A DNA stretch of 64,000 bases from contig JBDLUU010000081.1 in the NCBI GenBank assembly GCA_039805185.1, positions 11,766 through 75,765 of the forward strand, given 5' to 3'. Positions 3 through 47,481 of the stretch are shown one piece after another (the stretch's first letter is position 1; each line of letters opens with the position of its first letter). A program made the position numbers and the translations under genes. The notes beneath the pieces were generated by a model. The model did no database searches and was not told the DNA's origin. It saw only the letters and a list, made by a program, of their open reading frames with translations. Source of the stretch: Bacteroidota bacterium. Lineage in GTDB: Bacteria > Bacteroidota > Bacteroidia > Chitinophagales > Chitinophagaceae.

Positions 3-824
3 GACAGCGGATCTACCAAATGTGAATGGTGTTTACTGGAAAACGGCAAGAAAAAAACAGTTTTGACCCCTGCCATGAGTCCCTATTTTGTTTCAGGGGA
101 CGAAATGATTCAGATTCTGAACAAACAACTCATGCCCAAAATAAAGAACACAAAAGTTGATGAACTACATTTCTATGGTACCGGATTGGGCAATCCTGCC
201 AATGTGATTATTATGAAAAAAGTGTTCAAACAACTTTTTCCAAAAACAAAAACCGAAATCAATACCGATTTACTGGGAATTGCCAGGGCTTCCTGTGGAA
301 AGAAAAAAGGAATTGCCTGCATTTTAGGAACCGGATCCAATGCCTGTTTTTACAATGGCAAAAAAATCGTGAACATCAGTCCGGGGCTGGGTTATGTGTT
401 GGGAGATGAGGGGTCTGGAGCTTATCTGGGTAAAAAAGTGATTCAATACTACCTGTATAAAACCTTTGACGAAGACCTGATGAATCGCTTTGAAAAAAAG
501 TATGGAGAAACCCATGCAAGCATTTTGGAAAACGTCTATAAAAAACCTTTAGCCAATCGCTATCTGGCCAATTTTGCCCTTTTCCTTGCAGAAAACAGAG
601 GGCATTTCATGATTGAAAATATTATTGAAGACGGACTGAACGACTTCTTCTTTACACACTTATATAAATTCAAGGAAAGCTGGACCCTGCCTATTCACTT
701 TGTGGGAAGCGTTGGATTTGGTTTAAGAGATGTTTTAAAGGAACTTTGTAACAGTTACGAACTGGAATTAGGAAAAGTATTAAAGACACCAATGCCTGGA
801 TTAGTGGCATATCATAATCAATAA
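3..824 (+). CDS. BadF/BadG/BcrA/BcrD-family amino-sugar kinase (GlcNAc/MurNAc kinase, MurK-like), 5'-truncated by window edge
   Basis: Frame is open from nt 3 (DSGSTKCEW, the N-terminal phosphate-binding motif); ILGTGSN and LGDEGSG motifs; directly upstream of murQ. Confidence 0.85.
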   Translation, partial: DSGSTKCEWCLLENGKKKTVLTPAMSPYFVSGDEMIQILNKQLMPKIKNTKVDELHFYGTGLGNPANVIIMKKVFKQLFPKTKTEINTDLLGIARASCGKKKGIACILGTGSNACFYNGKKIVNISPGLGYVLGDEGSGAYLGKKVIQYYLYKTFDEDLMNRFEKKYGETHASILENVYKKPLANRYLANFALFLAENRGHFMIENIIEDGLNDFFFTHLYKFKESWTLPIHFVGSVGFGLRDVLKELCNSYELELGKVLKTPMPGLVAYHNQ

Positions 825-827
825 AAG

Positions 828-1649
828 ATGGGGAATTTTGTAAAAGTTACCGAGCAGTCATCCAGATACAACCATCTGGAGAAAATGAGTATTCAGGAGA
901 TTTTAACCAATATCAATAAGGAAGACAAAACCGTACCGGATGCAGTTGAAAAAGCCATTCCTCAGATTGAAAAACTGGTAGCGGCGATCTCAGACAAAAT
1001 GCTGCAGGGTGGTCGCCTCTTTTATATGGGTGCAGGCACCAGCGGTCGACTGGGTATTTTAGATGCAAGTGAATGTCCGCCTACTTATGGGGTACCCCAT
1101 GGTTTGGTCATTGGTCTGATTGCCGGAGGGGAAAAAGCCATCACACAGGCGGTGGAATTTGCAGAAGACAGCGCAGACGAAGGTTGGAGCGATTTACAAA
1201 AACATTATATCAACGATAAAGACGTTGTGATAGGACTGGCTGCCAGCGGCACCACCCCTTATGTAATTGGCGCTTTGAAAGAATGCCGGAAAAGAGGAAT
1301 CATTACAGGCAGTATCAGTTGTAATCCCAACTCGCCGGTTTCAGAAGCAGCCGACTTCCCTGTAGAAGTAATAGTAGGTCCTGAATTTGTTACCGGTAGT
1401 ACCCGCATGAAAAGTGGCACCGCACAAAAACTGGTGCTGAACATGATTTCTACAGCGGTTATGATTCAGTTAGGTCGTGTAGAAGACAACAAAATGGTCA
1501 ATATGCAGTTAAGCAATATCAAACTGGTTGACCGTGGTGTTAAAATGCTGATGGACAACCTGGGATTGAATGATTATGAAAAAGCAAAAGACCTCCTGCT
1601 TAAATACGGCAGTGTAAAAAAAGCGGTTGAGTCTTTTGAGAGTGAATAA
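828..1649 (+). CDS. murQ: N-acetylmuramic acid 6-phosphate etherase
   Basis: SIS fold motifs GAGTSGRLG, DASECPPTYG, GPEFVTGSTRMKSGTAQK. Confidence 0.95.
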   Translation: MGNFVKVTEQSSRYNHLEKMSIQEILTNINKEDKTVPDAVEKAIPQIEKLVAAISDKMLQGGRLFYMGAGTSGRLGILDASECPPTYGVPHGLVIGLIAGGEKAITQAVEFAEDSADEGWSDLQKHYINDKDVVIGLAASGTTPYVIGALKECRKRGIITGSISCNPNSPVSEAADFPVEVIVGPEFVTGSTRMKSGTAQKLVLNMISTAVMIQLGRVEDNKMVNMQLSNIKLVDRGVKMLMDNLGLNDYEKAKDLLLKYGSVKKAVESFESE

Positions 1650-1652
1650 CCT

Positions 1653-2219
1653 ATGCATGATATAGAACCTTTTTTCAACTGGCGTCATATTTATATTGCC
1701 GAAGAAGACAAACGTTCCCCATTCTTTGGCCGCACTTATTCTGAGTTTGAATTTTCGCAAACGGTTTACAATTATTTTATTCATCCGCAGTGGGATGAAT
1801 TTGGCAGCAGGACCCTGTACCTGAAAATCATTTATGTGGATTATGAATTGCATTTTACCATCATTGAAATGATTGGGGAATGGAATGATGCCATAGAAAA
1901 TGATATCATGGAACTGAAAAGGGAAATCATTGATTTACTGGAAAAAGAAGGCATATACAAATACATCCTTATAACCGAAAATGTGCTTAACTTTCATAGC
2001 AGCGACAAGGAATATTACCAGGAATGGTTTGAAGAAGTAACAGATGAAAACGGATGGATTGTAGCATTGAACATGCCACTGGCCACCCAACAGGATTTTA
2101 AAGGGAAGAAGTTGCATTATTATATTGAATTGATGGAGCTTCCCGACTGGAGAATTTACAAGCCCTATCATCTTTTCAAAAAAATTGACGACGAGCTTTC
2201 AAAACGCATTACACTATGA
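1653..2219 (+). CDS. Conserved hypothetical protein
   Basis: 188-aa ORF, 3 nt after murQ stop, normal composition; no family recognised. Confidence 0.75.
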   Translation: MHDIEPFFNWRHIYIAEEDKRSPFFGRTYSEFEFSQTVYNYFIHPQWDEFGSRTLYLKIIYVDYELHFTIIEMIGEWNDAIENDIMELKREIIDLLEKEGIYKYILITENVLNFHSSDKEYYQEWFEEVTDENGWIVALNMPLATQQDFKGKKLHYYIELMELPDWRIYKPYHLFKKIDDELSKRITL

Positions 2220-2566
2220 ACCAGGAAATCATTCACCTTTAAGACGAGTACAGGCACAAGCCATTGAGCAGACCCGAGTTCTTATCCAGACTGGCATTAC
2301 TAACCGGAGGCATGACTGCCGCATTAAGCAACTTGCCAATGATATAAGTGAATGCAGTCAATTCAAATATCACCACCACCGACAACCCCAACGATGGGAT
2401 TCCGGCATATGAAGCAGCTTTAAAAGCGAGCAATATAAAATTCGAACTGTTTATCTATGACAATGTAAACCACGCATTTCATAATGATAGGGCACCCGCA
2501 CGTTACGATGAAGAAGCCGCAAAATTATCCTGAGAAAGAACCCTGGTTTTTTTGCAAAATACCTAA
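2216..2566 (+). pseudogene. Decayed YghX-type dienelactone hydrolase family gene
   Basis: One frame from ATG 2216 reads MNQEIIHL*DEYRHKPLSRPEFLSRL...LPMI*VN...[10 protein letters not shown]...NHAFHND...AKLS*ERTLVF; in-frame stops at 2240, 2345, 2531; catalytic middle of the family missing. Confidence 0.8.
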
Positions 2567-2570
2567 AAGC

Positions 2571-3557
2571 CTAAGCAGCACTGTTGCTGGCTACAGACAC
2601 AAATACAATATCACCGGGATTAAATAAAAAAGAGTGTGCACTCACTTTTAAGATAAACCCATCTACCAGTACTTCGATTGCATAGTAGGCACCGAAGAAT
2701 TGTACTTTTTGTACTACCCCCTCAACCCAATGTGGATGAGAAGGTTTTGAAACACTGATGGCCAGTTGTTCCGGCCTGATCAATGCCCGCTTACCCCTTA
2801 CATCCTCTCCTAACATTTGCACAAACACTTCATGCGTTTTGGTATTGATGAGATTGTACTCACCCATTAAAGCAGCCACATATTCATTTACCGGATGATG
2901 ATAGAGTTGCTTGGGTATTCCCTGCTGCACCAGTTGACCATCCTGCATAATCAGGATGCGATCGGCCCAGGATAACAAATCGGTAGCATCATGGGAAACC
3001 AGTATGCAGGTAACTTTAAGTTTATCGCAAATATCATCAATCACCGAACGAATCAAAGCCTTATGTACCCTGTCCAGATTAGAAAAGGGTTCATCCAGCA
3101 AAAGGAGTTTAGGATAGGATGTTAATTGCTTGGCCAGGGCAATCCTTTGTTTTTCTCCACCAGATAATTCATCGGAACGACGCATCATCAGATGGGCAAT
3201 TCTGCACACTTCAAATATTTGCTGAGCCGACCGATAATCCAACTGATTGGTCATCGAAAGCAACTCATGCACTTTGTAATTATTTCTGAGTTCAAAATGC
3301 TGAGACAGGTAAGCAATCTTGGGATGCCCGGGGAGCAGTTGTTCATCTGGCCCCAGTACACGCATTCCCTCAAAGTACACATTCCCGCCCGTTGGCTGCG
3401 CCAGGCCTGCAATTAATTTCAGCAAGGTAGATTTTCCAGATCCTGTTTCCCCGGCAATTGCTACGCGTTCTCCCTCCTGCATGGTAAAATGCAGGGGATA
3501 CAAGACGGTATTCTCTCCCTCTTGTTTAAATAGTTCCTGTAAGTCTAGAAAAACCAT
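2571..3557 (-). CDS. ABC transporter ATP-binding protein (FbpC/PotA-like)
   Basis: Walker A GETGSGKST, signature LSGGEKQR, Walker B LLLLDEPF, C-terminal TOBE-like region. Confidence 0.9.
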   Translation of the reverse strand: MVFLDLQELFKQEGENTVLYPLHFTMQEGERVAIAGETGSGKSTLLKLIAGLAQPTGGNVYFEGMRVLGPDEQLLPGHPKIAYLSQHFELRNNYKVHELLSMTNQLDYRSAQQIFEVCRIAHLMMRRSDELSGGEKQRIALAKQLTSYPKLLLLDEPFSNLDRVHKALIRSVIDDICDKLKVTCILVSHDATDLLSWADRILIMQDGQLVQQGIPKQLYHHPVNEYVAALMGEYNLINTKTHEVFVQMLGEDVRGKRALIRPEQLAISVSKPSHPHWVEGVVQKVQFFGAYYAIEVLVDGFILKVSAHSFLFNPGDIVFVSVASNSAA

Positions 3558-3601
3558 ATCACAAATTACAAAATTGTACCTTCATTGTCTAATACAATTT
3601 C

Positions 3602-4777
3602 ATGAAAACCGATCAACTACGCAATGAGTTTCTGGTTCGCAAAGACCTGACATTTCTGAACTTCGGATCCTTTGGCGCATGCCCCAGGCCTGTATTTGAG
3701 CGTTACCAGCAATACCAGCTGGAACTGGAACAGGAACCCGTTTTGTTCATCGTGAAAACAGGACTGGAATACCTGCAAAAGTCTAGAGAGGCATTGGCAG
3801 CTTTTGTTAATTGCCATGCAGATGATTTAGTCTATCTGGTAAATCCTTCTCATGCCGTTAATCTGGTTGCCAAAAATTTTCATTTGAAAGCAGGAGACGA
3901 AGTAGTTACCACCAATCTGGAATACGGTGCATGCGACCGAACATGGGAATACTATTGTGCACAGGCAGGTGCCCGTTACAAACGTCAGCCTATTTCACTT
4001 CCCTTAACAACGAAAGAGCAATTCGTTGAAGATTTTTTCAAAGGAGTAACCAATAAAACCCGTTTGATTTTTATCAGTCATATTACCAGCTCTACTAGTT
4101 TACGTTTCCCAATAGAAGCCATTTGTACCAAAGCAAAAGAAATGGGCATTCCTACTTTTATTGATGGTGCTCATGGCCCCGCGCAGGCGCCTATTAATCT
4201 GAATGAATTGGGAGCCGATATGTACACCGGTGCATGTCACAAATGGATGATGACACCAAAAGGGAGTTCCTTTCTGTATGTAAACAAATCCTATCAGCGA
4301 ATGCTGGATCCATTGGTAATAAGCTGGGGATTCAATAGCACAACCCCTTCCCACTCTTCTTTTATAGATTATCACCAAACGCAAGGAACAAGAGATTTCT
4401 CCGCCTTTCTCTGCATACCCAAAGCCATTGAGTTTATGCAGCAATACAATTGGCAAAATGTAGCTAAGGAATGCAGACAATTGGTGCATGACAATGCACA
4501 ACGTTTTTGTGAGTTGGTCAGGAGCCAACCACTGGCACCGGTAAACAAAGATTTTATTCTGCAGTTATTCAGTATTCCTATTCGCACGCAAGAACCAACC
4601 GCTTTAAAAAATGTATTGTTCAATGAATACAAAATTGAAATACCCGTTATGCCTCACGGAGACGAGGTATACCTGAGATATTCAATACAGGCCTTCAATA
4701 CACAGGCCGATTTAGATACCCTGTATCATGCGGTGGAAGACATCATTAAATCCACCGATTTAATACAGGTAGATTAA
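3602..4777 (+). CDS. Class V PLP enzyme (isopenicillin N epimerase / cysteine-conjugate C-S lyase-like)
   Basis: [12 protein letters not shown]-terminus, IDGAHG, GACHKWM PLP-lysine motif. Confidence 0.85.
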
Positions 4778-4992
4778 AGGGTACTAATATAGAGATCTTC
4801 GACTTTTTTGCGCGCCCATGGTGTTTTACGCAGAAAAGTCAGCGAAGATTTTATGCTGGGATTGTTTTTAAAACAATTGATATTGATGATTCTGGCAAGA
4901 TCTTCCCAACCAAAATGTTGCACTAAATAAGTTAAGATCCACTCCAGGGTTTTGCCATGCAGTGGATCCTTGGAAACAAAGTTTTCAGACAT
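4774..4992 (-). CDS. DUF2132 / VF530-family small protein
   Basis: DPLHGKTLE...[21 protein letters not shown] pattern. Confidence 0.85.
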
Positions 4993-43204: not shown

Positions 43205-44113
43205 TTATCCTTTAATTAATTTACCTTTCTTGTATATGCCAAACACTTTTACGTTATTGGTATATTCCTTTATCTTCTGCAACATTTTTTCAAATTGTTT
43301 AATTTGATCAAACTCCATATCGGCATAAAAACCATATTTAAAATGGCTGCCTGGGATAGGCATACTTTGCAGCTTACTCAGGTTGATACCCGTAGAAGCT
43401 ACCTGTGACAAAACCTTAGACAATACTCCCCTTGTATGATTGGTCTGAAAATAAATAGAGGCTTTATTGGCATCATTAACCGGTAGCGCCTCCTTGGTTC
43501 TTTTCAAAATCAGGAATCGGGTAATATTGTTTTTTTGTGTTTGAATATCAGGTACCAGAATCTGAAGATCATTAATTTCTGCAGCCAGCTTACTGGCAAT
43601 GGCAGCCAAATGTTTACAATGATGTTGTTTAACATATTGGGCACTTAATGCGGTATCTTCTGTTTCAATCAATTTGAATGAATGCTGTTCCAGAAAATCC
43701 AGACACTGTAATAAAGCCATGGGATGACTGTGGACTTCTTTGATATCCGACAACTGTACGCCTTTATTGGCCAGCAAATTCTGACTGATAGACAAATACA
43801 CTTCTCCTACAATGGTCAGGTTTGCTTTCTGCAAAAGGGAGTAATTAGGCAGTATACTTCCCGCAATTGAATTCTCAATAGCCATAACAGCAGCATCAGA
43901 AACCTTACTATCCAATGCCATTTTAACCAGTTCTCTAAAAGAGGCACAGGGAATAACTGAAACCTTTTTACCAAAAAACTTCCTTGCCGCTACCTGATGA
44001 AAACTTCCCTCGTATCCCTGAATACATATCCCTATAGGCAAATCAGAAGATGCTATTTTTTTATTGGAAGACGACATTATATCTATGTGTTTTAAAATGA
44101 TTTTGGTTGGCAT
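43205..44113 (-). CDS. pheA: Prephenate dehydratase (start could be 44077)
   Basis: QGYEGSFH, AIENSIAG, HSHPMALLQC, NITRF, ACT domain INLSKLQSMP. Confidence 0.93.
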   Translation of the reverse strand: MPTKIILKHIDIMSSSNKKIASSDLPIGICIQGYEGSFHQVAARKFFGKKVSVIPCASFRELVKMALDSKVSDAAVMAIENSIAGSILPNYSLLQKANLTIVGEVYLSISQNLLANKGVQLSDIKEVHSHPMALLQCLDFLEQHSFKLIETEDTALSAQYVKQHHCKHLAAIASKLAAEINDLQILVPDIQTQKNNITRFLILKRTKEALPVNDANKASIYFQTNHTRGVLSKVLSQVASTGINLSKLQSMPIPGSHFKYGFYADMEFDQIKQFEKMLQKIKEYTNNVKVFGIYKKGKLIKG

Positions 44114-44345: not shown

Positions 44346-44380
44346 AAAAAATAAGCCCCCCCGTGGAAACGGAGCGGCTT
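44346..44380 (-). terminator. Intrinsic terminator for the small lipoprotein transcript
   Basis: AAGCC..CCGT-GGAA-ACGG..GGCTT hairpin with adjacent A-tract (U-tract on minus strand). Confidence 0.6.
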
Positions 44381-44472
44381 CTAACGATTGCTTGCCATAT
44401 GAAATTCTTAGGTCTGTTGTTCCCGATCTGCAAGCCAGATACACAGGACCTCTTCACCAACAGACGATTCAA

Positions 44473-44652
44473 TTACTTCTTTGCAGTTGTGTCTACAGTT
44501 GCAGCAGCAGTGTCTACAGTTGCAGCAGCAGTGTCTACAGTTGCAGCAGCAGTGTCTACAGTTGCAGCAGTTGTGTCAGCAGCAGCTTCTTTGTTTTCTC
44601 CAGCGCAAGATGCGAATACACCTAAAGCCAAAACAAATAATAATTTTTTCAT
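44473..44652 (-). CDS. 59-aa lipoprotein with (TVDTAAA)n repeats
   Basis: MKKLLFVLALGVFASC lipobox (Cys16); mature AGENKEAAADTTAATVDTAAATVDTAAATVDTAAATVDTTAKK. Confidence 0.85.
   Translation of the reverse strand: MKKLLFVLALGVFASCAGENKEAAADTTAATVDTAAATVDTAAATVDTAAATVDTTAKK
44489..44572. repeat. 21-bp tandem repeat GTGTCTACAGTTGCAGCAGCA
   Basis: Three perfect copies (44489, 44510, 44531) plus a 19/21 copy (44552). Confidence 0.95.
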
Positions 44653-44684
44653 TTTTTTTCTTTTTAAGTTTGAATGATTACTGA

Positions 44685-44713
44685 TTAATACGCAGATGAA
44701 TAAAAGGTAACCC
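44685..44713 (-). promoter_or_regulatory. Putative ECF-type promoter GGGTTAC-N14-CGTATTAA toward the lipoprotein gene
   Basis: Identical boxes and spacing to the copy at 44756-44784 on the opposite strand. Confidence 0.7.
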
Positions 44714-44755
44714 GGCAAAATCCTTTTTTTCCAAAAAAATTTTTAGGCCTATTTT

Positions 44756-44784
44756 GGGTTACTTTTAAGTGACAAACGTATTAA
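44756..44784 (+). promoter_or_regulatory. Putative ECF-type autoregulatory promoter GGGTTAC-N14-CGTATTAA toward the sigma gene
   Basis: GGGTTAC 44756-62, 14-nt spacer, CGTATTAA 44777-84. Confidence 0.7.
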
Positions 44785-44795
44785 AGACACAGATA

Positions 44796-45362
44796 GTGAA
44801 AGGAGATACGAACGAACAAGCATTATTAAAGGGTCTGGCTCACAACGATTCAAAGGCTGTAGAAATCATATATAAAGAAAATTTTAATATGATTCAGGCT
44901 TTTATTCTGAATAACAATGGAAGCTATGACGAGGCAAGGGATATTTTTCAGGAAGCAATGATTGCTTTATATGAAAAGTCTCAGACCGATTCTTTTGTTT
45001 TGACTTGTCAGATTAAAACCTATCTCTACTCGGTTTGCCGGAGACTTTGGCTGAAGAGGCTCCAGCAGATGGGAAGATATACCGGATCAATAGATGGATT
45101 TGAAGAAACGGTAGCAGTTGAAGAAGATTTGGAAAACCATGAAAAAAGAAACGCAGAGTTTGCAATCATGGATCGGGCACTGAACAGTTTGGGAGAACCA
45201 TGCAAAAGTTTATTGCAGGGTTATTACCTAAAAAAAATGGACATGAATGCATTAGCTATAGAATTTGGTTACACCAATGCGGATAATGCAAAAAACCAGA
45301 AGTACAAATGCCTGATGCGCTTGAAGAAACTTTTCTTTTCACAATATAATATAGGTGAATAA
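44796..45362 (+). CDS. ECF sigma-70 factor
   Basis: sigma2 ARDIFQEAMIALYE, TYLYSVCRRLW; sigma4 ..NADNAKNQKYKCLMRLKK; GTG 44796 preferred because GTG 44769 lies inside the promoter motif. Confidence 0.92.
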   Translation: MKGDTNEQALLKGLAHNDSKAVEIIYKENFNMIQAFILNNNGSYDEARDIFQEAMIALYEKSQTDSFVLTCQIKTYLYSVCRRLWLKRLQQMGRYTGSIDGFEETVAVEEDLENHEKRNAEFAIMDRALNSLGEPCKSLLQGYYLKKMDMNALAIEFGYTNADNAKNQKYKCLMRLKKLFFSQYNIGE

Positions 45363-45403
45363 TTCTTTAACGAATAACACCCAGACTAAAGAACTGAATA
45401 TTG

Positions 45404-46510
45404 ATGGAAGATATTTTATTACTAGACGCAATTGAAAGATACCTCAGCGGTGAAATGAGTGCTGAAGAGCGCAACTATTTTGAGAATCTGAGAAAGACCA
45501 CACCTGAAATAGATCAGATGGTGGTTGAACACAATATGTTCCTTCACCAGATTGCGGACTATGCTGCCAATATTCAGATTAAGCAAACCTTACATGAAGT
45601 TCACCAGCATCTGCTGGACAGAGGAGACCTGAATGAAGGGGGCGCGTTGACTCCTAAAGGAAAAGTGATTCAATTCTGGAACAAGTATAAAAGAGTTACA
45701 GCGATTGCTGCTTCCGTAGGTGGCGTGATTGCTTTATTTATCAGTGGGCTGGCTATGTATTTTTCTACTTCAGTAAATGATCCTAAACTGGAACAGTTGG
45801 GTAAAGATCTGGAAGTGGTTAAGAAAAACCAGCAGGCTCAGGTGAATATCATTAATGAAGTAACATCCAAAATTCCGAGCAATGCAAGATTATTGAGCGG
45901 AGGCTCGGGCTTCTTGGTAGATCCCAAGGGATACATTGTTACCAATGCCCATATTCTGAAAGGTACAGGAGCCATTGTTGTAAACAGCAAAGGCGCTGAA
46001 TTCAAATCTTCTATTGTATTAATTGACCACGATAAGGATCTGGCCATTTTAAAAATTAACGACGAAGAATATGAGTCGGTAAAAACCATTCCTTACAGTA
46101 TTCAGAAAATCAATTCATCCTTAGGCGAAGAAATATTTACATTAGGTTACCCCAGAAATGAAATCGTTTATGGAATGGGGTATTTAAGCGCTAAAACCGG
46201 ATTTAACGGCGATTCGCTTTCGTACCAGATTCAAATCAGCGCAAACCCTGGCAACTCCGGAGGTCCTGTTTTCAACAAGAACGGAGAAGTAATAGGGGTG
46301 TTAAGCACCAGACAAGCCCAGGCAGATGGGGTTGCTTTCGCCGTAAAATCAAAGAATATTCATTCGATTATAGAAGACCTGAAAAAATCAGATACAGCTT
46401 TCAGAAAAGTTAAACTGCCAGCAAAATCAACACTAAAAGGTGTTGAAAGAAAAACACAGATTACCAAAGTGGAAGATTGTGTATTCTTTGTAAAAGCTTA
46501 TACAAAATAG
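45404..46510 (+). CDS. Membrane-anchored S1 (trypsin-like) serine protease with anti-sigma-like N-terminus
   Basis: IERYLSGEMSAEER N-terminal helices, one TM (IAASVGGVIALFISGLAMYF), triad TNAHI / DLAIL / GNSGGP; no PDZ seen. Confidence 0.85.
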   Translation: MEDILLLDAIERYLSGEMSAEERNYFENLRKTTPEIDQMVVEHNMFLHQIADYAANIQIKQTLHEVHQHLLDRGDLNEGGALTPKGKVIQFWNKYKRVTAIAASVGGVIALFISGLAMYFSTSVNDPKLEQLGKDLEVVKKNQQAQVNIINEVTSKIPSNARLLSGGSGFLVDPKGYIVTNAHILKGTGAIVVNSKGAEFKSSIVLIDHDKDLAILKINDEEYESVKTIPYSIQKINSSLGEEIFTLGYPRNEIVYGMGYLSAKTGFNGDSLSYQIQISANPGNSGGPVFNKNGEVIGVLSTRQAQADGVAFAVKSKNIHSIIEDLKKSDTAFRKVKLPAKSTLKGVERKTQITKVEDCVFFVKAYTK

Positions 46511-46581: not shown

Positions 46582-47481
46582 TTACTTCCAAAGAGACGCC
46601 GGATATACTTTAGCATTAACTAAAGCATTGATAGCTGCCTGCACACCGGGAGCATCTTCTTTATAAGTTACCCCAAACCATTGCGCAGAGGTTGGAAGTA
46701 CTTTTAAAACGCCTTTACCCGATTGAATAAATTCATTGGCTGCATATGGTATAAAGAATTCAGACTTTAATTCCTGTCCCTTTGCTTGTAGAAACTCTGT
46801 AAACATATCTTCACACATATCAATAAAGTCGGCTGAGAAACAGAAGTAGTTCATGCTCACGAGACTGTTTCCAGGCAATGGGTGCTTCCCTGTTTCATCC
46901 TCATATACAATCTCTCCATTCTCACGGTAGATTTTTGTTCTTTCATTAATGGCAGTGAGGTTATTGTTGGCATCAGCCGTGCAAACACCGCGACTAACAC
47001 TTCCATTTTCACTTAGTGTTTTCTGCAACTCATACCCTACTAATGCAAAAGTGGATGCATTGCACAGTGAATTTAAAAATTCAACAGCCTTATCAAAAGC
47101 ATCTCTTCCATAATAATCATCCGCGTTAATTACAGCAAAAGGCTCATTTACCTTTCCCTTGCAACAAAGCACCGCATGTGCCGTACCCCAAGGCTTTGCC
47201 CTGTCGGCAGGAATGGGATAGCCTTTGGTATATGCTTCCAGATGCTGGTAAACATAGTCAGTCGCAATTTTCCCTGCCAGTTTGGGTTCAAAAATGGCCT
47301 TGAATTGTTCAGAGAACTCTTCACGAATAATAAATACAACTTTACCGAATCCGGCTTTGATGGCATCATAAATAGAGTAATCCATAATTGTTTCACCATC
47401 CGGACCAAATGATTGTATTTGTTTCATACTTCCGTAGCGACTGGCCATTCCGGCAGCAAGTATAACAAGGGTAGGTTTCAT
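46582..47481 (-). CDS. Sugar-phosphate nucleotidyltransferase (MurU-like candidate)
   Basis: ILAAGMASRYG, PWGTAHAV, INADDYYG, WFGVTY. Confidence 0.85.
   Translation of the reverse strand: MKPTLVILAAGMASRYGSMKQIQSFGPDGETIMDYSIYDAIKAGFGKVVFIIREEFSEQFKAIFEPKLAGKIATDYVYQHLEAYTKGYPIPADRAKPWGTAHAVLCCKGKVNEPFAVINADDYYGRDAFDKAVEFLNSLCNASTFALVGYELQKTLSENGSVSRGVCTADANNNLTAINERTKIYRENGEIVYEDETGKHPLPGNSLVSMNYFCFSADFIDMCEDMFTEFLQAKGQELKSEFFIPYAANEFIQSGKGVLKVLPTSAQWFGVTYKEDAPGVQAAINALVNAKVYPASLWK

Follow-up and report, generated by a model that had tools for sequence, protein, structure and literature searches.

Three genes lying between pheA and a convergent nucleotidyltransferase gene in a 64 kb stretch of contig JBDLUU010000081.1 (64,000 nt, here the window; Bacteroidota bacterium, assembly GCA_039805185.1) appear to form a self-contained extracytoplasmic function (ECF) sigma factor module. 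They encode a small lipoprotein, an ECF sigma factor and a partner protein in which a cytoplasmic head that weakly resembles anti-sigma domains is joined, through a single membrane helix, to a predicted periplasmic protease domain of the HtrA/DegS type. Taking the wiring to consist of the sigma, an anti-sigma-type partner, a promoter shared by the two transcription units and a lipoprotein output, and with its conservation in three orders of Bacteroidota, we put the probability of this reading at about 70%. At 97% identity, the encoded proteins have their best relatives in Sediminibacterium (family Chitinophagaceae).

A first-pass annotation, made from the letters of the window, had named four parts: an ECF sigma; a partner, in the position of a cognate regulator, with an anti-sigma-like cytoplasmic N-terminus and a periplasmic trypsin-fold domain; a small repeat-containing lipoprotein read divergently from the sigma; and an identical motif pointing into both transcription units. 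All four are present in the window, and they recur together in other genomes. The N-terminus is predicted to form three helices, has weak fold and zf-HC2 profile likeness to anti-sigma factors and is encoded directly after the sigma. The trypsin-fold domain (Trypsin_2, E 8.6e-24) has an intact triad and HtrA/DegS folds, the lipoprotein open reading frame (ORF; 44652–44473, minus strand) contains 4.2 copies of a 21 bp repeat, and the motif has 0 mismatches at each copy and is conserved across the loci described below.

Conservation of the gene arrangement and its promoter

When a six-sequence alignment of the partner was used to scan genomes, with one genome kept per species, at least 54 loci with a full-length relative were returned. 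The listed loci belong to Chitinophagales (Chitinophaga among them), Sphingobacteriales (Pedobacter, Mucilaginibacter, Sphingobacterium and others) and Cytophagales (Hymenobacter, Larkinella and others). A further 26 listed loci, mostly from Betaproteobacteria, matched the protease domain only and served as controls. A sigma homologue sharing 44–97% identity was directly upstream and on the same strand in 54/54 of the full-length loci and in 0/26 controls. The distance from the sigma stop to the partner start has a median of 3 nt in the 54 loci, and is 41 nt in the window. A divergent small lipoprotein gene (at least three D-S/T sites, within 900 nt) was found at 42 of 53 loci, sometimes in two copies. 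No fourth gene of the module was detected, as no other flanking gene of more than 80 amino acids (aa) is common to more than 14 of the 54 loci. A search of representatives at the 50% identity level placed 296 clusters in the wider family of fusion proteins at E ≤ 1e-30, and full-length relatives are approximately 360–370 aa long down to 29% identity. Conservation of the three-gene arrangement and its motif was the comparative check that the first-pass annotation had named, and both are kept across three orders and in metagenomes.

The motif, GGGTTAC-N14-CGTATTAA, is present in two exact copies in the window, one facing each transcription unit. These two sites remain the only matches in 64 kb when up to two mismatches are allowed (chance expectation 0.08), and none of 100 shuffled sequences contained two or more sites. 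No match was found on either strand of 389 kb of control sequence. In the listed loci, GGGTTAC-N15/16-GTATTAA (spacer measured up to the G of GTA) precedes the sigma gene in 48 of 53 cases, and the motif is also upstream of 35 lipoprotein genes in the 54 genomes, where it lies 53–76 nt before the ATG. In the lipoprotein copies the −35 element is extended to GGGTTACCTTTT. ECF promoters, such as that of Bacillus subtilis sigma-W, usually consist of an AC-ended −35 element, 15 nt and (C)GTA, and a promoter of the autoregulation type (AC-ended −35, CGT-type −10) is present upstream of the sigma's own operon. Both copies in the window appear to be promoters read by the module's sigma.

Metagenome contigs from JGI were then scanned with GGGTTACCTTTT-N10/11-GTATTAA. 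At least 120 loci were found, and 123 sites had enough downstream sequence to be examined. Among the matches listed, 91 of the 123 sites precede a complete small lipoprotein rich in glycosylation sequons (see below) at a median distance of 36 nt. Nine more sites mostly lie ahead of members of that family that are truncated or variant, for a total of approximately 100 of 123. The −7 element of Bacteroidota sigma-A, TAnnTTTG, is not enriched upstream of the metagenome lipoprotein genes (7/100, with 11 ± 3 expected), and the ECF-type motif is thus the only conserved promoter of these genes.

At five of the listed metagenome loci the extended motif precedes a gene for a 96 aa cytoplasmic protein with a weak match to CBM48/AMPK-CBM (E 1.6e-05, just under the Pfam cutoff), and at three it precedes a gene for a secreted protein of approximately 140 aa that has no Pfam match. 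These are possible further members of the regulon; neither is encoded in the window.

RNA data were drawn from four metatranscriptome runs that contain the window sequence or a close relative, with three metagenomes as a DNA control. RNA coverage was zero over 44709–44795 in all four runs, and zero or near zero over 44622–44708 (depth 2.9 in one run), while DNA depth was flat over the whole stretch, including the intergenic region. Operon contigs began at 44802, just downstream of the motif, in two independent runs, and the RNA contig starts agree with the predicted transcript starts. Contigs also crossed the sigma/partner junction, in agreement with co-transcription of the two genes. Assembler word depth was 138–4871 over the lipoprotein gene and 7–31 over the operon, and the non-repeat part of the lipoprotein 3′ untranslated region (UTR) had 3–7 times the operon depth. 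The direction is consistent: the lipoprotein transcript was several-fold to tens-fold above that of the sigma operon, which makes it a strong output.

The sigma factor and the lipoprotein

Residues 32–187 of the 197 aa ORF called mechanically for the sigma (44769–45362) match NCBIfam TIGR02937 (sigma70-ECF) with 59.6 bits (cutoff 42.9), and Pfam Sigma70_r2 scores 21.8 bits, just under its cutoff of 24. This places the protein among the ECF (group 4) sigma-70 factors, which are approximately 170–200 aa long and have sigma regions 2 and 4 only. The NCBIfam models for sigma subgroups all score far under their cutoffs on this protein (e.g. Sig70_bacteroi1, 36.8 against 126), and its ECF group may well be catalogued already. 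The GTG at 44796, giving a 188 aa protein, is more likely to be the true start than the GTG at 44769. The latter sits within the promoter motif, homologues align from residues 1–7 of the 188 aa version, near-identical NCBI assemblies have the sigma called as 188 aa and the RNA contigs begin at 44802. The sigma gene almost always starts, in Chitinophagales, with a GTG 9–14 nt past the −10 element, which implies an mRNA that is leaderless, or nearly so, and whose start codon is not AUG. Sphingobacteriales have a conserved TAGTGAG 2–3 nt past the −10 element, with the coding sequence starting further downstream.

A TTGAAG-18-TATAAT hexamer pair (10/12 match) was also seen at 45321–45350 on the plus strand, in the sigma gene's 3′ end and shortly before the partner gene. 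It corresponds to the Escherichia coli sigma-70 consensus, which differs from that of Bacteroidota, and may be a chance match.

The lipoprotein has the sequence MKKLLFVLALGVFAS-C16, then AGENKEAAADTTAATVDTAAATVDTAAATVDTAAATVDTTAKK. A signal peptide leads to a lipobox (...VFAS-C16, FASC) and is followed by a tail that is disordered, rich in A, T, D and V and includes five D-T-[AT] sequons; the 21 bp repeat encodes the (A-A-T-V-D-T-A)n of this tail. NCBIfam NF050142 (PG1828 family lipoprotein) matches over model positions 1–59 with 42.3 bits (E 9.5e-11), under its cutoff of 50; at E ≤ 0.01 it also recognises 26 of 28 orthologues (best 5e-14). By resemblance, the protein is a relative of the PG1828 family that falls under the curated line, and it has the traits of that type: a signal peptide with a lipobox cysteine, a small size and a sequon-rich tail. 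A profile search with the lipoprotein returned relatives from Chitinophagales and Sphingobacteriales only.

The mature parts of these lipoproteins have a median length of 49 aa; A, T, D, S, V and K dominate their composition, and they lack aromatic residues and any further cysteine. Asp precedes Ser or Thr in 134 of 141 cases, and D-(S/T)-(A/I/L/V/M/T) sequons number 119, against 22 ± 4 in shuffled sequences (maximum 37), an approximately fivefold excess. The sequons, about five in each protein, are the only conserved feature of these lipoproteins. In Bacteroidota, D-(S/T)-(A/I/L/V/M/T) is established as the site of O-glycosylation (PMC8550257). The lipoprotein is probably O-glycosylated several times, and the excess of sequons backs the label of glyco-lipoprotein given in the first-pass annotation.

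The lipoprotein transcript is predicted to end at a hairpin that lies approximately 95 nt past the stop codon. RNA-seq fragments that run into adapter end nearby, at 44374 and 44391. The hairpin is kept in S. salmoneum and, built on another stem sequence, in a variant strain. The first-pass annotation had also raised the prospect of a small RNA from this 3′ region, and here it found no support: the region has no Rfam match, its fold z-score of −1.15 is not significant and RNA contigs run unbroken from the coding region into the 3′ UTR. A separate 3′ small RNA was accordingly set aside as unsupported.

The public lipoprotein calls for S. salmoneum (KI866530.1, positions 2501–2752 of the locus stretch) and for two further loci are over-extended to 83 aa, and the called ATG overlaps the promoter motif. 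The signal peptide starts at a later ATG (position 2574 of the locus stretch), giving 59 aa. In S. salmoneum the lipoprotein gene and the sigma operon are parted by an insertion of approximately 55 kb. At its end (positions 1–2470 of the locus stretch) there are genes with Multi_ubiq, ThiF/DUF6791 and BubE domains, which make up a set for ubiquitin-like conjugation, together with approximately 370 nt starting GTGCGCCCGG that we read as a putative 5′ part of a group II intron.

The partner protein and the proposed circuit

The partner has a single hydrophobic segment, at about residues 97–119, with KYKR on its N side. Among the listed loci the position of this helix (residues 89–105 in 52 of 54) and a net charge of +3 on its N side are conserved, and A102 and A103 within it are invariant in sets of 16 and 64 relatives. 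The helix and the positive charge that precedes it place the head in the cytoplasm and the protease domain in the periplasm.

Pfam Trypsin_2 matches residues 167–299 of the partner (E 8.6e-24), and the catalytic residues H183, D212 and S285 are invariant in 16 diverse relatives and 64 further ones. The AlphaFold2 model is confident over the protease domain (predicted local distance difference test score, pLDDT, 80–94), and the best matching folds in the PDB are DegS-deltaPDZ, HtrA1 and MucD (Foldseek E approximately 1e-12, TM-score 0.7 on the target). The NCBIfam DegP, DegS and MarP models give partial matches under cutoff, and the HtrA/DegS models, DegQ included, all score far under theirs (e.g. 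DegS, 78 bits against 423). Of the features of HtrA/DegS (S1C) proteases, the chymotrypsin fold and the His-Asp-Ser triad are present and the C-terminal PDZ domain is not; Pfam found no PDZ match in the partner. Where HtrA proteins have the PDZ domain, the partner continues for 50 residues as two helices and a strand (pLDDT 82–92); this extension has no Pfam match, and its R349 and Q352 are invariant in 64 relatives. Database names of all relatives are generic: 'serine protease Do' or 'S1C family serine protease'.

Residues 1–73 of the head are modelled as helices 2–15, 20–32 and 34–73 with a pLDDT of approximately 90. When this part was compared with 350,542 PDB chains using Foldseek, the five best matches were to RslA and RsiW, anti-sigma factors in sigma-bound form, and MucA was also returned. 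Among 29 family members, zf-HC2, a Pfam anti-sigma family, was the commonest weak match (11/29; best E 0.0019, under threshold). Y13, F26, R30, D37, V40 and V41 are invariant in 64 sequences. The layout of class I anti-sigma factors, namely a helical N-terminal bundle, one transmembrane helix and a gene directly after that of the sigma, is found here, and on the predicted structure the head weakly resembles a zinc-less class I anti-sigma domain. Coordinates of the module and its surroundings are in Table 1.

Table 1. Features of the module and its flanks (positions in the window)
Feature	Position	Strand	Basis or comment
pheA	43205–44113	minus	flank of module
Terminator-like hairpin GAAGCCGCUCCG-UUUCCA-CGGGGGGGCUU and T-run	44346–44380	minus	terminator scan, RNA fold; predicted end of lipoprotein transcript
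3′ UTR of lipoprotein mRNA, ~90 nt, one more hairpin	44381–44472	minus	
Small lipoprotein gene, 59 aa	44652–44476 (stop 44475–44473)	minus	ORF and translation
Tandem repeat, 21 bp × 4.2 copies	44489–44577		Tandem Repeats Finder, 97% matches, score 164
Lipoprotein ECF-type promoter motif GGGTTACCTTTT-N9-CGTATTAA	44685–44713	minus	−10 element ends 32 nt before ATG
Sigma/partner operon promoter motif GGGTTAC-N14-CGTATTAA	44756–44784	plus	−10 element ends 11 nt before GTG 44796
ECF sigma, 188 aa	44796–45362	plus	TIGR02937, homologues
Partner protein, 368 aa	45404–46510	plus	
Partner cytoplasmic N-terminal domain, residues 1–75	45404–45628	plus	three helices, predicted structure
Partner single transmembrane helix, residues 97–119	45692–45760	plus	hydrophobicity, N-side positive charge
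Partner predicted periplasmic HtrA/DegS-type protease domain, residues ~160–315	45881–46348	plus	Trypsin_2
Partner catalytic residues H183, D212, S285	45950, 46037, 46256	plus	
Partner C-terminal extension, residues 316–368, stop included	46349–46510	plus	two helices and final strand
Nucleotidyltransferase gene	46582–47481	minus	convergent, other flank of module

Next to the module, a likely transcription attenuator of pheA lies upstream of that gene (44254–44118, minus strand). A stretch of 10 residues in a 28 aa leader peptide, MQTAFNNWFYFFFYFYFEKRSRVRFVIA (44254–44168), includes seven Phe, three Tyr and one Trp, and a strong terminator hairpin with a T-run (44148–44118) comes just before the pheA start. 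The match to Rfam Phe_leader is weak (23.9 bits, gathering score 55, E 0.59).

In the circuit that we propose, the head would hold the sigma at the inner membrane, acting as a zinc-less class I anti-sigma domain, and the periplasmic protease domain would do for this anti-sigma what DegS does for RseA, but within the same chain. An envelope signal would activate the protease, and the juxtamembrane linker of a neighbouring protomer would be cut or exposed in an HtrA-type trimer. A site-2 protease and cytoplasmic proteases would then complete the cleavage and free the sigma, which would boost its own operon and strongly induce the lipoprotein. Lipidated and glycosylated, the lipoprotein would be an abundant component of the envelope or surface. 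We infer binding of the sigma by the head from its weak fold and profile likeness to anti-sigma factors, and induction of the lipoprotein by the sigma from the promoter. The built-in site-1 protease step, taken on its own, is tentative, and we lean somewhat against it.

Several observations weigh against the circuit as drawn. The matches of the head to anti-sigma folds are not significant (E 1–10), so that the likeness is suggestive only, and a profile search of PDB sequences with the head returned spurious PPAR helices and no anti-sigma factor. The zinc-binding HxxxCxxC is absent: the stretch reads ENLRKTTPEID and residues 1–95 contain no cysteine. Many functional anti-sigma domains are without zinc, and this absence therefore rules out only the zinc-binding subclass. 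No adjacent lipoprotein was found at 11 of the 53 listed loci. A sigma GTG start approximately 0–6 nt from the likely transcript start is unusual. Contig depth is rough and a poor gauge of expression, and the repeat inflates depth 2–4 fold even in the DNA metagenomes. Cleavage by the protease domain, whether of itself or in trans, is pure conjecture, and the protease could equally be an output.

Alternatives to this circuit concern the partner and the promoter. The chief one keeps the partner as an anti-sigma but makes its inner-membrane-tethered, HtrA-like protease an output, or a quality-control effector that degrades damaged envelope proteins or processes the lipoprotein, with other proteases inactivating the anti-sigma. 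DegP-type proteases are classic members of envelope-stress regulons, as in the E. coli sigma-E regulon, the invariant triad would be needed for any proteolytic role and no cleavage site is evident in the linker, residues 79–154, which AlphaFold2 modelled with low confidence. However, head, membrane helix and protease are in one chain of approximately 360–370 aa in every listed full-length relative, whereas a protein serving as a mere effector should turn up without the fusion in at least some cases, and the closest solved folds are those of DegS, the site-1 protease of an anti-sigma. We consider this version rather unlikely, though it is the most serious of the alternatives. It is distinctly less probable that the partner is not an anti-sigma at all and is simply a co-transcribed, membrane-anchored protease of the sigma's regulon, leaving the sigma under transcriptional control only, as has been speculated for Porphyromonas gingivalis SigH. 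Structure and profiles point weakly to an anti-sigma domain, some ECF groups have no recognisable regulator, that of SigH among them (PMC7826278), and the lipoprotein PG1828 is a neighbour of SigH by locus-tag number. Yet a mere anchor has no obvious use for a head of approximately 75 residues with invariant positions, the median gap of 3 nt and the strict co-occurrence are the usual signature of a sigma and its paired anti-sigma, and the best head folds, though weak, are all of anti-sigma factors.

The two motif copies could also be something other than promoters, either half-sites of an inverted-repeat operator for another transcription factor or a chance similarity, since in the window they face each other 42 nt apart and make an inverted repeat. 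We regard this as very improbable indeed. Each copy has a fixed distance and orientation to its own gene, and second lipoprotein copies each have a motif of their own. In S. salmoneum the motif stays with the lipoprotein gene even though the insertion separates it from the sigma operon by approximately 55 kb, which favours a promoter over a palindromic operator. Single copies precede lipoprotein genes at approximately 100 of the metagenome sites listed, RNA coverage begins just downstream of both copies in the window and the layout is that of an ECF promoter. A bolder extension of our circuit, in which the PDZ-less DegS-like domain would read the state of the PG1828-like lipoprotein (unglycosylated, unlipidated or mislocalised) as ligand or substrate and cleave the anti-sigma in trans within an HtrA-type trimer, would make the three genes a sentinel loop for the capacity of O-glycosylation and lipoprotein export in Bacteroidota. 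This is improbable; if true, its logic might extend to SigH and PG1828 of P. gingivalis.

Comparison with known systems

Literature searches returned no description of a protease-fused anti-sigma factor or of a GGGTTAC-type motif, and to our knowledge the anti-sigma and the site-1 protease are separate proteins in known regulated-proteolysis pathways. The module thus seems to be an undescribed variant of the ECF sigma/anti-sigma theme. The first-pass annotation had not recognised it as a characterised system, and this stands as far as the literature and the generic names of the relatives go; the lipoprotein family, however, was already in NCBIfam as PG1828. A fusion without a PDZ sensor would be a compact new gate for an ECF sigma and a clean case for HtrA activation without PDZ. 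Approximately 6% of Bacteroidota ECF sigmas have a recognisable class I anti-sigma nearby (PMC7406223), and the fusion family would point to one hiding place of those not recognised so far, behind the name 'serine protease Do'. Small, abundant, sequon-rich lipoproteins of no known function gain a promoter and a candidate regulator. With a 29 bp promoter that has essentially no off-target matches, the sigma and its partner could also serve as an orthogonal switch in Bacteroidota.

The closest parallel is the sigma-E/RseA/DegS/RseP pathway of E. coli, in which an autoregulating ECF sigma is held by a single-pass anti-sigma with a cytoplasmic N-terminal domain and an anchored protease of the HtrA family starts the cascade. 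Here, the anti-sigma-like head and the predicted DegS-like protease are one polypeptide. There is no RseB-like gene, and the main output appears to be one tiny lipoprotein rather than a broad folding regulon. The protease domain shares its fold, triad and periplasmic location with DegP, DegQ, DegS, MucD and HhoA, and DegS is likewise anchored by an N-terminal membrane helix. Known HtrA proteins lack the 95-residue cytoplasmic head, whereas the partner lacks PDZ and falls below the NCBIfam HtrA/DegS cutoffs. In DegS, the PDZ domain is the sensor of outer-membrane-protein C-termini (PMC8103513); in the partner the 50-residue extension stands in its place.

The EcfO-Reo and Das1-Dma1 systems of Bacteroides (ECF21) also pair an ECF sigma with an unusual anti-sigma whose short N-terminal region binds the sigma, and their regulon is dominated by phylum-specific NigD lipoproteins that are very highly expressed (PMC10927553, PMC13114119). 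They resemble the module in their restriction to Bacteroidota, their odd anti-sigma and their lipoprotein regulon. However, Reo and Dma1 end in an eight-stranded outer-membrane beta-barrel (OMP_b-brl_2) after a disordered linker (PMC10927553), whereas the partner ends in a trypsin-fold protease, and the NigD lipoproteins are a different family from the 60–70 aa PG1828-like peptides. EcfO/Reo as the identity of the module was ruled out on the barrel.

In P. gingivalis, the ECF sigma SigH is linked to oxygen and hemin responses. The locus tag of PG1828 adjoins that of SigH (PGN_1740/PG1827; PMC5607195), and Casas-Pastor et al. placed SigH in ECF114 (ECF114s4), a group without a recognisable regulator (PMC7826278). 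PG1828 (PGN_1739) is a TLR2-activating lipoprotein (PMC13466725), listed in PMC8729774 with a mass of 7.1 kDa and what we take from the column to be four O-glycosylation sequons. No protease-fused partner has been reported for SigH. Likened by locus tags and descriptions only, the SigH–PG1828 pair is a lead rather than a result, and the neighbourhood of sigma and lipoprotein may be one that P. gingivalis shares with the module described here.

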